Counted from the stretch's first letter, positions 55,221-62,677 are shown. The stretch: 64,000 nt of DNA from Dehalococcoidia bacterium (GCA_965207415.1 CBDBMD010000003.1:2086028-2150027), one strand, 5' to 3'. Translations and numbers: made by a program. Notes: generated from the sequence alone by a model not told the origin.

Positions 55221-55652
55221 ATGAGACGGGACATCCGCGTCAGGGTCTTCGACTTCGGCGACTCGGTGCCGAAGTCGCCGCGCGAGATCCTCGTGCGCTT
55301 CGTCGTGCACGCGGCGGGCCTCTGGCTCGCCGCCGGGCTCGTGCCCGGCATCCAGGTTGACGACGTGCCCTCGCTGGCAGCGGCGACGGCGATCTTCGGG
55401 CTGCTCAACGCCTTCGTCCGGCCGCTCGCCTACCTCGCCTCGGCCTGCCTGATCGTGCTGACGCTCGGGCTCTTCATCTTCGTGATCCACGCGGGCCTGC
55501 TGGCGGCCACGGCCTGGATCTGCGGGCAACTCGGCCTGGCCTTCAGCATCGAGGGCTTCTGGTCGGCGCTCTTCGGCTCGCTAATCGTCTCGCTCGTCTC
55601 GCTGCTCGCCCACGTCCTGCAGCGCGGCCGCCGCGGGAGCAGCGCCGCCTAG
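55221..55652 (+). CDS. DUF360 / phage-holin-4_2-family membrane protein
   Basis: 143 aa with 3-4 TM segments (VHAAGLWLAAGLVPGIQVDD...). Its 3-prime end overlaps the sbcC stop by 4 nt (convergent). Confidence 0.55.
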   Translation: MRRDIRVRVFDFGDSVPKSPREILVRFVVHAAGLWLAAGLVPGIQVDDVPSLAAATAIFGLLNAFVRPLAYLASACLIVLTLGLFIFVIHAGLLAATAWICGQLGLAFSIEGFWSALFGSLIVSLVSLLAHVLQRGRRGSSAA

Positions 55653-58600
55653 ACCGGCTGCTCGACCGCCTCGCGGGCTTCCCTCGCGCTGGACGCACGC
55701 GCATCGCGGATCGTGCTCACCGCGCCGCTGCGCACCACCTCGATGCGGTCGGAGAGCCGCTCGGCGACCTCGGGCACGTGCGAGATCACGCCGACCAGCC
55801 GCCGCCCGCCCGCGAGCGACTCGAGGCCGCCGATCGCGGTGTCGAGCGAGTCCTGGTCGAGCGAGCCGAAGCCCTCGTCGAGGAACAGCGACTCGAGCGA
55901 CATCGCGCCGCCGTGCCCGGCGATCTCCGGCAGCCGCTCGGAGAGGGCCAGCGCCAGCGCGAGGCTGGCAAGGAAGGTCTCGCCTCCGGAGAGCGTCTTG
56001 ACCGAGCGCCGCTCGTCGCCGTTCAGCTTGTCGATCACCGAGAAGGCGTCGCCCTCGGCGACCAGCCGGTAGCGGCCGCTGGAAAGCGTGAGCAGCCGCT
56101 CCGCGGCATCGGCCGCCAGCAGTTGCATCGCCTCGCGCTGCACGTAGGCGATGAAGCGGTTGCGCCGCAGCTCCTGCGCGAGGGCGTCCGAGAGTTGCGC
56201 GCGGCCGTCGTAGTTCTCGGCCTCGGCCTGCATCCCGAGCGCGCGCTCCGCATCCGCACGCGCCCGCTCCAGCCGCTGTGCGGCCAGGGCCTGGTCCCGT
56301 GCGCAATCGCCATGCGCGGCGCGGTGCGCGGCGAGCAGCGCGGGCACGCGCCCCCACGAGGGCTCCCCATCCGCCTGCGCCGCGGTCCACGCTTCCGCGA
56401 AGCGGACTCCTGCTTCGTCCGCCGCCGCGCGGGCTCCAGCGAGCTCACCCTCGAGGCGTGCGACGGCAGCCTCCGCTCGGGTGAGCGCCTCCCGAGCCGC
56501 GTCGCGCGTCGCACCGGCGCCGGCGAGGGCCTGTCCGGCCTCGCGCAGCGACGCCTCGAGCGCGCGATGGCGCGCGGCCTGCTGCTGCACAGCGGCGAGG
56601 GCGGCGCGGACGGCCTCCGGGTCCGCGTCCTCGCCGCCGAGCGCGGCGAGTTGTTCGCGCGCACGCTCCAGGGCCGCCTCGGCCCGCTCGCAGCGCTCCT
56701 GCGCGCGCGTCACGTTCGAGGCTCCCTCGCGGGCGCGGTCGGCCGCCTGGCGCGCGGCCTCGCGGGCGCCCTCGGCAGCGGCGGCTGCCGCGCGCTGCTG
56801 CTCGATCGCCGCGTCGAGGGCGGCCTGCACGGCCTCCGGCGCTCCCGCCTCTCCCGCCTCCTCGTCGCCGATCGCCTCGCCGATCGAGGCGCGCAGCAGC
56901 GCCAGCGCACGCGACGCCTCGGAGGCGCGGACGCGGGCGGCTGCTGCTGCGGATGCCCGAGCGCGCTCGGTTTCGGCGGCCGCCTCGGCCGCCGCGATCG
57001 CCTCGTCGAGGGCGTCTGGATCGGTGCCTGCCCGCGCGGCCTCCTCGCGCAGCTCGGCGAGCGCCGCCTGCGCGCGCTCCTGCACCTCGGCGGCCTGCGC
57101 GGCTCGCACCTCCACCGCCGCGAGGGTGGTCGAGGCTGTCGCGTGGTCCCCGCGCGCCTCCGCGAGCACCGCCTCCGCCGCATCGAGCGCCGCGCGCGCC
57201 CCGTCGAGCGCGGGGGCGGCGTGCAGCTCGATCCGTTCGATCGGCTCGCCGCAGACCGGACACGGGTCGCCCGGCTTCAGCGATCGCTGGAGCGTGAGCG
57301 CCGCGTCCTGCCGCTGGGCCTCCTCGAGCGCCTCGGCGCGACCGGCGTGCGCCTGCTCGGCGCCACTTAGCAGCGCCCCCGCAGCCTTCGAGGCGGCGGC
57401 GGCAGCCTCGTGCGACTCATGCGCCTCCTGTTGCTCGCGCTCGGCTGCAGCGACGGCCTCCCGTTGCTCCCTCAGGCGCTCCGAGAGCGCGGTCAGCTGT
57501 CGTGCCTCCTCCGCACGCGCGAGGGCGGCGTCCTCGGCGGCGGCGCGTTCCTCGTCCGACGCGTTCGCCTGCTCGCCGAGCGCCCGTTCCGTGGCCAGCG
57601 CCGCCGCGGCTGCGGCCGCGAGGGCGTCCCGCGCGGTCTGCCGGACCTCGTCCGCCGCCACGTGTGCGGCCTCCGCCTGCTCCGCCTCCGTCTGCAGCAC
57701 ATCGGCCTGCTCCGAGGCCTGCTCGCCGGCCTCGATCGCCGCGCGCTGCTCCGCCTCGGCCTCGCCGACGGCGCGGGTCGCGGCCTCGCGCTGCTCCAGC
57801 AGCGCGGCCTGGCGTTCGAGCTCGCGGTGCGCCTGCTCGCCGTAGCCGAGGGCGGCGCGTTCCGCCTCGAGGCGATCGTGCTCTGCCTGCGCGCGCTCGC
57901 AGTCCTGCTCCGCTTCGGCGAGGGCGTTTCGCGCCGCTTCGGATCCCCGGGCGGCCTCCGCACTCGCGGCCTCGGCGCGCGCGGCCGCAGCAGCGGCCTC
58001 GGTGCTCGCGCGCGCCTCCCGCTCCAGCGCCTCCAGCAGGCCACTGCGCGCCTCGAGCGCCGCGACCTGCGCCGTCAGCACGTCGCGCTCCCGTTCGAGG
58101 CCGGCGATCGCCTCCGGCGTGGCGGCGTCGAGCCGCTCCATCTGCTCGCGCAGCGTGCGCGCAGCCTCGCTCGCGCCTGCGGAGCGGTTGCGCGCCGCGC
58201 GGCCGGCCTCCTCGTAGCGTCCGAGGCCGAGCAGGCGGGAGAGGATGTCGCGGCGCTGCGGCTCGTCGCCGCGCAGGAACTCGTCGAACTCGCCCTGCGG
58301 CAACAGCACCGTTTTCGTGAACGTCGCGAAGTCGAGCCCGAGCAGCTCCGTCACCCGCGAGGTCACGTCGCGGGCGCGGTCGGCCAGTGGCTCCCACTCG
58401 CCGTCCACGCGCTGCCGCTCGAGGCGCGTGCCGATGCTGCCCGGCGCCTGCCGGCTCACGCGGTAGCGCTGCCCGCGCGCGCTGAACTCGAAGAGCACGG
58501 CCATCGAGCGCGCGCCGTGCGTGATCAGCTGGCGCGTCGCCCGCCCCACGCGCGGGGCCTCGCCGTAGAGCGCCCAGGTGATCGCGTCGAGCAGCGAGGA

Positions 58601-61616: not shown

Positions 61617-62677
61617 CGCGCACCTCCGGCGCCGTTCGAGGAGAGCAGTGCGTCCCCGGGCGAGGCTGGCTCAAGCGGCTCGGGTGCGGCGCGCAGCGCG
61701 CTCGCGATCAGCCGCCGCACCCACTCGCGCTCGCCGAGCCGCCGCGTCAGCAGCGACTCGAGCGCTCCCACCGGCGTGAGGTTCTGCGGCGCGCGCGGGT
61801 CACGCACCGGCGAGGAGGCGAGTCGCGGCAGCGCCAACCCGCACTCGTCGGCCAGCCGCGCCGCATCGCCGGGCGGCAGCGCGCCGGGGGCCTCGAGGCG
61901 CACGATGCCGGAGAGGTGATGGTAGTGCGGTCCCATGTCGGCGATCCGCAGGTACCAGCCGTAGCGATCGGGCCGGCCGCGGCTGCCCGCCTCGCCGCCG
62001 CCGGGGATCCGGAACAGCGACGTGCGCTCGCCCACCGCAAGCTCGCCGAGGAGCGGGAACTCGTGCGCGGCGATGTACCAGGACTGGATCCGCTTGATGT
62101 AGCCCGCCACGCGCTGCTCGACGGAGCGCAGCCGCAGCGGCCCGTCCACGATCGTGAGTGCGCTCTCGTCCTCGGCGAGGGTCTCGGCAAGCCGCGCCTC
62201 CGCATCGAGCATCGAACGCTGGAGTACGTCGGCCAGTTGATTCGAGGTGCGCGCGCTGTTCTCGACGCGCGCGCGGAAGCGCAGCCGCAGCGAGCCCGCC
62301 GCGATCTCCTGGTCGCGCGGCTCGCCGCCGCCCTGCAGGTAGACGCGAGAGACGCGCAGCCGGTCGCCCTCCGGCGTGTCGCCGTCGAGCACCCAGGAGC
62401 GAGCGCCCTCGCAGCGCACCGCGCCGACGGCATAGGAGCCGAACAGCCCGAACGCCGTCTCTCCGTCCGGGAGGTCGTCGATGGCGTGTGCCTCCACGCG
62501 CCGTACGCCGTCGACGATCTGCACGGCAGCGGGTGGCTCGCCCGAGGGTCGCCGCGCGCGCCACTCGCCCTCGACAGACGTGTCGGCCCGCAGGCCTTCG
62601 TCCGTGCCGTCGAACGACTCGGGATCGGCCTGCATGGCGCTGCCGTACTCGGGAGACCAGGGAAGCAGGCGCAGCAT
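61610..62677 (-). CDS. nurA: Putative NurA-like nuclease (partner of the HerA-like ATPase)
   Basis: 355 aa from ATG 62677. Candidate acidic motifs QIVDGVRRV and LTIVDGPLRL. Its stop overlaps the herA-like start. The assignment rests mainly on conserved herA-nurA context. The 603-aa track ORF is extended 5-prime through the antisense of ubiE. Confidence 0.45.
   Translation of the reverse strand: MLRLLPWSPEYGSAMQADPESFDGTDEGLRADTSVEGEWRARRPSGEPPAAVQIVDGVRRVEAHAIDDLPDGETAFGLFGSYAVGAVRCEGARSWVLDGDTPEGDRLRVSRVYLQGGGEPRDQEIAAGSLRLRFRARVENSARTSNQLADVLQRSMLDAEARLAETLAEDESALTIVDGPLRLRSVEQRVAGYIKRIQSWYIAAHEFPLLGELAVGERTSLFRIPGGGEAGSRGRPDRYGWYLRIADMGPHYHHLSGIVRLEAPGALPPGDAARLADECGLALPRLASSPVRDPRAPQNLTPVGALESLLTRRLGEREWVRRLIASALRAAPEPLEPASPGDALLSSNGAGGARW

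Follow-up and report, generated by a model that had tools for sequence, protein, structure and literature searches.

In Deinococcus radiodurans, NurA and HerA assemble at a 2:6 ratio into a complex for the resection of DNA ends, an activity for which a pin-like motif of NurA and residue W8 are required (PMC9960219). HerA-NurA has otherwise been treated as an archaeal system, with the Deinococcus-Thermus copies credited to transfer from archaea (PMC12977600, PMC7752040), and a review in which homologues are listed for Cyanobacteria, Actinobacteria and Firmicutes makes no mention of linkage to sbcCD (PMC8708640). Such linkage is on record for Oceanithermus profundus, in which sbcD and sbcC lie downstream of nurA-hepA (herA); Blesa et al. 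(2017, PMC5448004) read this cluster as an archaeal-like double-strand-break repair architecture, Thermus and Deinococcus being without the sbcCD linkage. Here, we analyzed a 64,000-nt stretch of DNA from a Dehalococcoidia bacterium (CBDBMD010000003.1:2086028-2150027; hereafter, the window), which is approximately 98% identical to a Dehalococcoidia metagenome-assembled genome (MAG). The window carries the same four linked genes as O. profundus, a member of a different phylum (Deinococcota). The locus is an ordinary, intact orthologue of a known bacterial repair system with a layout already on record, and we consider it quite probable that the operon encodes a double-strand-break end-processing module, all components of which are of bacterial lineage.

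All four minus-strand open reading frames (ORFs) that a preliminary description of this DNA had proposed are present in the window, i.e., nurA (61610..62677, 355 aa), herA (59922..61616, 564 aa), sbcD (58711..59925, 404 aa) and sbcC (55649..58714, 1021 aa). The nurA stop and the herA start overlap by 7 nt in the sequence ATGGTAG, with the TAG stop at 61612-61610 and the ATG start at 61616-61614, and a GGAGG motif is located at 61627-61623, 7 nt 5' of the herA ATG. At the next two junctions, the herA stop and sbcD start have GTGA in common (59925-59922), and the sbcD stop and sbcC start have ATGA in common (58714-58711). The nurA frame remains open upstream to 63421, but an extension would cross a divergent ubiE-type methyltransferase gene (62798-63544). 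Given that alignments to NurA homologues begin at residue 1-2 and that W7 is conserved in 96% of these, the ATG at 62677 was taken as the nurA start. The proposal of four coupled genes was thus borne out by the sequence, by family models and by structures, both for the identities of the products and for the overlapping stop and start codons.

The two proteins at the head of the operon are full-length orthologues of the D. radiodurans NurA-HerA pair (PDB 7F6D, 7WRW, 7WRX). In a phmmer search, the window HerA matched D. radiodurans HerA (DrHerA; 7f6d_B) with E=2.8e-144 over residues 14-553, and a HerA family profile reached the same chain at 673 bits. The product of 59922..61616 therefore belongs to the bacterial, NurA-associated clade of HerA, a hexameric DNA translocase/ATPase, and not to a different P-loop family. 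Its remaining PDB matches were weak, covered the C-terminal part only, and were to anti-phage HerA proteins; neither single-sequence nor profile searches reached an archaeal HerA structure at E<=1. The HAS-barrel and FtsK/HerA-type core that had been suggested for this protein are likewise predicted here, on the strength of full-length homology to the solved DrHerA. A wider homologue search returned only close HerA relatives (>=63% identity), which are named "ATP-binding protein" or "HerA-like ATPase".

The Walker A segment of the window HerA, GVSGVATKTS (residues 168-177; codons at 61086..61115, minus strand), departs from the GxxxxGK[ST] pattern, and the preliminary description had considered it deviant and indicative of a regulatory or non-canonical ATPase. 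DrHerA, however, has GISGVATKTS at the equivalent place, and its K175 and T176, numbered by counting along the PDB chain, contact the beta-phosphate and Mg2+ in an enzyme that acts as a DNA- and NurA-stimulated ATPase (PMC9960219). The window residues K175/T176 (Walker A), D439/E440 (Walker B) and E209/D210 (KGED) align with DrHerA K175/T176, D487/E488 and D220, respectively. Among 16 HerA sequences from six phyla, S167, G168, S170, G171, V172, A173, T174, K175 and T176 were invariant, as were K207-G-E-D210 and D439-E440. Since the motif matches that of the active DrHerA and is invariant in these homologues, the unusual Walker A is, judged by the alignments, a hallmark of the HerA family and neither a sign of decay nor that of a regulatory or dead ATPase.

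The assignment of the first gene, which had been made mainly from context, was upheld by direct evidence. Pfam PF09376 matched residues 150-265 of the 61610..62677 product at 32.3 bits (cut-off 21; E=9e-8), and phmmer aligned residues 38-326 with D. radiodurans NurA (DrNurA; 7f6d_H) at E=1.8e-30. A profile built from 17 NurA sequences reached 7f6d_H with 205 bits and Thermotoga maritima TM1739 (1ZUP) with 79 bits, and matched no archaeal NurA structure, even at E<=10. By these homologies the product is a nuclease of the bacterial NurA clade, for which the RNase-H-like fold of the solved NurA structures is predicted. NurA D56 aligned to DrNurA D53, a catalytic position targeted by mutagenesis, and W7, around which the N-terminal pin region lies, aligned to DrNurA W8, which adjoins the pin-like motif required for duplex unwinding (PMC9960219). 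In alignments of 17-70 homologues, D56, E160, D178 and E307 were invariant, and K195 is invariant as well.

The D. radiodurans pair and the window proteins thus have in common Walker A, Walker B, the KGED motif, the catalytic Asp of NurA and the N-terminal Trp next to the pin. The D. radiodurans genes also show the same layout of nurA stop and herA start, albeit in a two-gene operon that is not followed by sbcD-sbcC, as it is in the window and in most of its relatives. Both window proteins are shorter than the D. radiodurans PDB chains (tags included), at 564 versus 618 residues for HerA and 355 versus 369 for NurA, because several loop insertions are missing.

The two downstream products are of the bacterial SbcD and SbcC types. 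SbcD, a Mre11-family nuclease, scored 150.2 bits against TIGR00619 (cut-off 77.65) and was matched by both Pfam Metallophos and SbcD_C, with Escherichia coli SbcD (4lty) as its best structural match (E=1.5e-28). All phosphoesterase motifs are present, i.e., D8-x-H10, D48 (GDIWD), N83-H84 (GNHD), H183 (THIF) and H225/H227 (GHVH). SbcC, a Rad50-family ATPase, matched E. coli SbcC (6s6v_C) at E=1.6e-39 and AAA_23 at 81.9 bits (cut-off 27), and its split ABC-ATPase head carries Walker A GPTGAGKS at 32, LSGGE at 908 and Walker B LFLDEGF at 943. The zinc hook CPVCGEP, pointed out in the preliminary description, is present at residues 485-491 of 1021, near the middle of the protein (CPVC, residues 485-488, codons at 57251..57262, minus strand), within a region rich in Ala, Glu and Arg (34% Ala, 15% Glu). 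SbcD-type models scored 150-181 bits on SbcD, where Mre11 models did not exceed 52 bits, and Rad50 models gave at most 109 bits on SbcC against 280 for the SbcC model. E. coli SbcCD (6S6V, 4LTY) has the same phosphoesterase motifs, ABC-ATPase head, long coiled coil and CxxC zinc hook, and in both E. coli and the window sbcD and sbcC are adjacent with overlapping frames. In E. coli, however, sbcDC makes up a two-gene operon by itself, which is not known to include herA or nurA, and long-range resection is carried out by RecBCD. A Streptomyces SbcC homologue is named "SMC family ATPase" in RefSeq.

To survey the arrangement, HerA was scanned against one genome per GTDB species, which yielded at least 510 confirmed relatives. 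The best 80 loci were fetched, i.e., those whose HerA sequences are nearest to the query (>=57% identity), a sampling bias that applies to all counts below, and arrangements were called by tblastn with the four window proteins. In 59/80 loci, nurA-herA-sbcD(-sbcC) were contiguous, and in a further 7/80, mostly from Acidimicrobiia, the order was herA-sbcD-sbcC-nurA, so that the four genes were adjacent in 66/80 loci when both orders are counted. Three other loci (3/80) had sbcDC 1.2-3.9 kb away, beyond an insertion, two (2/80) had herA-sbcD with nurA truncated or undetected, and nine (9/80) had no sbcD inside the available flank; nurA lay next to herA in most of the 80 loci. Carriers belonged to Chloroflexota (Dehalococcoidia, Chloroflexia, Thermoflexus, Limnocylindria), Actinomycetota, Acidobacteriota, Gemmatimonadota and Eisenbacteria. 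The linkage reached down to 47% HerA identity in the cyanobacterium Sphaerospermopsis kisseleviana NIES-73, which has nurA-herA-sbcD-sbcC on a conjugative plasmid.

The herA-first order was found in loci L026, L030, L032, L034, L045, L055 and L068 (mostly Acidimicrobiia), as well as on a linear plasmid of Streptomyces sp. BB1-1-1 (L081, NZ_CP134205.1) and in Nonomuraea gerenzanensis (L083, NZ_LT559118.1), whereas nurA comes first in most phyla outside these actinomycete loci. Because all four genes lie together in so large a share of the nearest loci and in several phyla, their linkage is far above chance, and the existence of two gene orders, both of which retain all four genes, argues for selection on co-expression. 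When all flanking ORFs of 84 loci were clustered, no fifth gene was conserved with the module beyond clade-level synteny. The preliminary description had held that nurA-herA is normally unlinked from sbcCD in bacteria; for the sampled HerA clade, this view is not supported by the counts given above, to which the three loci with an insertion and the published O. profundus cluster may be added.

Some individual loci differed in detail. Two contigs of the same Dehalococcoidia MAG, L008 (OZ219874.1, 121 kb) and L012 (OZ219872.1), each carry a HerA copy approximately 95% identical to that of the window, one in a full four-gene operon and the other without sbcCD. In the latter, the identity of NurA falls to 50%, and nurA and herA are separated by a small additional ORF; this second copy may be a duplicate that has since diverged, may reside on a plasmid or may reflect a mix of strains. 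In three Actinomycetota loci, unrelated genes lie between herA and sbcD (L046:2828-6090, L067:7975-9148 and L079:11847-15369), and among the inserted ORFs are one of 804 aa and a kinase-like one of 664 aa.

From the characterized homologues, the overlaps, the intact catalytic residues and the cross-phylum linkage, we infer co-transcription, a hand-off between SbcCD and HerA-NurA, whether physical or functional, and a role in end processing in vivo. A single transcript arising upstream of nurA would serve all four genes, and the stop/start overlaps would hold their products in balance. SbcC2-SbcD2, a Rad50/Mre11-type complex with its coiled coils joined via the CPVC zinc hook, would bind and, in an ATP-dependent manner, clip DNA ends, hairpins or protein-blocked ends. 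HerA6-NurA2 could then load on the cleaned end and thread the duplex through the central channel of HerA, while the N-terminal pin of NurA would part the strands and NurA would degrade mainly the 5' strand during translocation, as described for the D. radiodurans complex (PMC9960219). The predicted product is a 3' tail, which would be used for RecA loading.

Several observations weigh against this reading. At 279.7 bits, SbcC falls below the TIGR00618 cut-off of 478.5, no Pfam family matched HerA at E<=0.1, HerA/DUF87-type models included, and no LexA-type box was found 5' of nurA in the window. In Thermus thermophilus and D. radiodurans, moreover, the nurA-herA pair works without linked sbcCD (PMC5448004), and a 2026 study doubts that archaeal HerA-NurA resects DNA and proposes that it degrades foreign DNA (PMC12977600). 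Since the Thermus and Deinococcus pair works in this way, cooperation with SbcCD is not obligatory. NCBIfam likewise gave no family-level match for HerA, and the bacterial HerA clade is too divergent for the Pfam HerA/DUF87 model. Model searches thus supported NurA (PF09376) and SbcD as the preliminary description had expected, but not HerA/DUF87, and the Mre11 and Rad50 models that it had named fell far below those for SbcD and SbcC.

An alternative that we regard as unlikely is that the module chiefly destroys foreign linear DNA of phages or plasmids, in the manner of RecBCD, rather than serving host repair. Known anti-phage systems do pair HerA with nucleases, and an antiviral archaeal HerA-NurA was proposed in 2026 (PMC12977600). 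The window HerA shows a distant likeness to the HerA of Sir2-HerA and DUF4297-HerA (NF042943, NF042944) in the C-terminal ATPase core; its partner, however, is NurA and not Sir2 or DUF4297, and it stands in a housekeeping context. NCBIfam anti-phage HerA models gave 15-16 bits against cut-offs of 800-850, and PADLOC returned weak matches to HerA and mad8 models, with only 34 bits for the top match and 24 bits or less for the HerA models. Copies also occur on mobile replicons, i.e., the conjugative cyanobacterial plasmid and the Streptomyces linear plasmid, and in the latter (L081:1-6328) the module directly adjoins genes of the TIGR02680, TIGR02678 and DUF2397 families, presumably a Wadjet-type set, and an ImmA/IrrE metallopeptidase gene. 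This setting is defense-island-like, unlike that of the window, where no defense or mobile-element genes were seen near the operon and the flanks are housekeeping genes (the ubiE-type methyltransferase, an MFS transporter, an oxidoreductase and RecF). The GC content at third codon positions (GC3) of all four operon genes is 0.90-0.96, the same as that of neighboring genes, which points to native composition, and recent horizontal acquisition was rejected on this ground. In addition, the module is syntenic in the chromosomes of related genomes, and the LexA-type boxes of certain relatives suggest instead a response to DNA damage.

Slightly less likely still is the view that SbcCD and HerA-NurA are co-located yet functionally independent, with SbcCD acting on fork hairpins and palindromes and HerA-NurA serving, for example, in chromosome segregation or in restraining recombination. 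Such independence would agree with the retention of nurA-herA without linked sbcCD in Deinococcus and Thermus (PMC5448004), with the nine loci without sbcD in the available flank and with the divergent phenotypes published for the archaeal proteins (PMC12977600), but it fits poorly with a linkage that at least five phyla retain, whichever of the two orders the genes take and with short gaps or overlaps between them, and with no other gene conserved alongside the module.

Thermophilic archaea (Sulfolobus, Pyrococcus) have an operon of the same four protein families, which is co-transcribed there and in which the labor is believed to be divided between short-range clipping and a subsequent long-range resection, as is proposed for the module described here. 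A direct contact between HerA and SbcD, if present in the module, would have a reported counterpart in Sulfolobus. We take the order of the Sulfolobus operon to be herA-mre11-rad50-nurA, to which herA-sbcD-sbcC-nurA in Acidimicrobiia, Streptomyces and Nonomuraea corresponds. The window differs from the archaeal operon both in the bacterial lineage of its components and in its order, nurA-herA-sbcD-sbcC, and the difference from the presumed archaeal order speaks against an archaeal source. The earlier label of an archaeal-type operon is therefore apt for the idea of four contiguous genes on one strand, but not for their lineages or order. At the protein level, the pin-like N-terminal motif is present in bacterial NurA and absent from archaeal NurA, and NurA-HerA contacts are ionic in the bacterial and hydrophobic in the archaeal protein (PMC9960219). 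Although the four-gene concept matches the archaeal operon and published work derives bacterial herA-nurA from archaea (PMC12977600, PMC5448004), recent gain of the operon from archaea by horizontal transfer is highly improbable, given that the best structural relatives are bacterial (DrHerA, DrNurA, T. maritima NurA, E. coli SbcC and SbcD), that SbcD and SbcC models outscore those for Mre11 and Rad50, that the HerA and NurA family profiles reach no archaeal structure, and that GC3 does not set the genes apart from their neighbors.

A double-strand-break end-processing module of bacterial lineage therefore remains the reading that we prefer. Linkage to SbcCD is the rule in the sampled HerA clade, across many phyla and in two gene orders, and its spread is under-reported in the literature searched. 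The survey contradicts recent papers that confine bacterial herA-nurA to Deinococcus-Thermus, and whereas the authors of the O. profundus study treated their cluster as a lineage-specific recruitment of sbcCD, linkage is here the majority state across many phyla. We further propose, tentatively and in the belief that the case is finely balanced but slightly on the doubtful side, that nurA-herA-sbcD-sbcC is both the ancestral and the prevailing arrangement in the bacterial HerA-NurA lineage and constitutes a widespread pathway of long-range resection; the distribution of the module is observed, whereas functional coupling and evolutionary polarity belong to this proposal only. If it is true, the pathway would span Chloroflexota, Actinomycetota, Acidobacteriota, Gemmatimonadota, Cyanobacteriota and Deinococcota, the module would complement or replace RecBCD, AddAB or AdnAB, and the unlinked Deinococcus and Thermus pairs would be a derived exception, contrary to the archaeal-origin view in the literature searched. 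The cooperation of Mre11/Rad50-type and HerA-NurA machines is still disputed for archaea, and cultivable Streptomyces, Nonomuraea and cyanobacteria offer tractable hosts for this question.

Signals for expression were sought upstream of and within the operon. A -10-like hexamer, TATACT (62735..62740, minus strand), lies 57 nt 5' of the nurA ATG and is a candidate operon promoter element, and a ribosome-binding-like GAGG is present at 62685-62688. TATACT was kept upstream in L001-L007 and L012 and, among more distant loci, in L009, L011 and L018, and this conservation suggests a putative role as a promoter. A scan with a strict sigma-70 consensus, which carries little information at 72% GC, found no promoter in the window and none in shuffled controls. 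Inside the operon, terminators gave no signal above the shuffled expectation, the single terminator-like match, in herA, being within it.

A GAAC-N6-GTTC palindrome at approximately 62751-62764 was considered as a LexA site and rejected, as its second half varies among close relatives. Exact GAAC-N4-GTTC palindromes of the LexA/Cheo type occur approximately 50-70 nt 5' of nurA in L014, L015, L017 and L067. The number of such boxes (3 or 4) compares with 0.44 expected from a background of 0.0125 per kb in the fetched DNA, an approximately 8-fold excess that may reflect SOS control in some lineages. In L009, L011 and L018, an AGTAC-N4-GTNCT-like palindrome is located just 5' of the conserved TATACT.

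Beyond sbcC, a RecF gene lies on the same strand at a distance of 3.9 kb (50566-51771, minus strand; TIGR00611 273 bits, cut-off 172). It is separated from the operon by three plus-strand genes and by a 326-aa ORF (51791-52771, minus strand) that is rich in Ala and Glu and matched no family, and the synteny of RecF and operon is retained only in the closest relatives. The RecF gene is genuine but not part of the operon.

The convergent holin-family gene noted previously, with its 4-nt overlap with sbcC, was also recovered. This ORF (55221-55652, plus strand) encodes a small membrane protein of 143 aa that matches PF04020 (Phage_holin_4_2) at 88 bits, and it shares the palindrome CTAG at 55649-55652 with the sbcC stop. 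It had no NCBIfam match, no phage genes were found around it, and it was syntenic with sbcC only in nine closely related loci. The PF04020 "holin" is probably an ordinary membrane protein outside the module.

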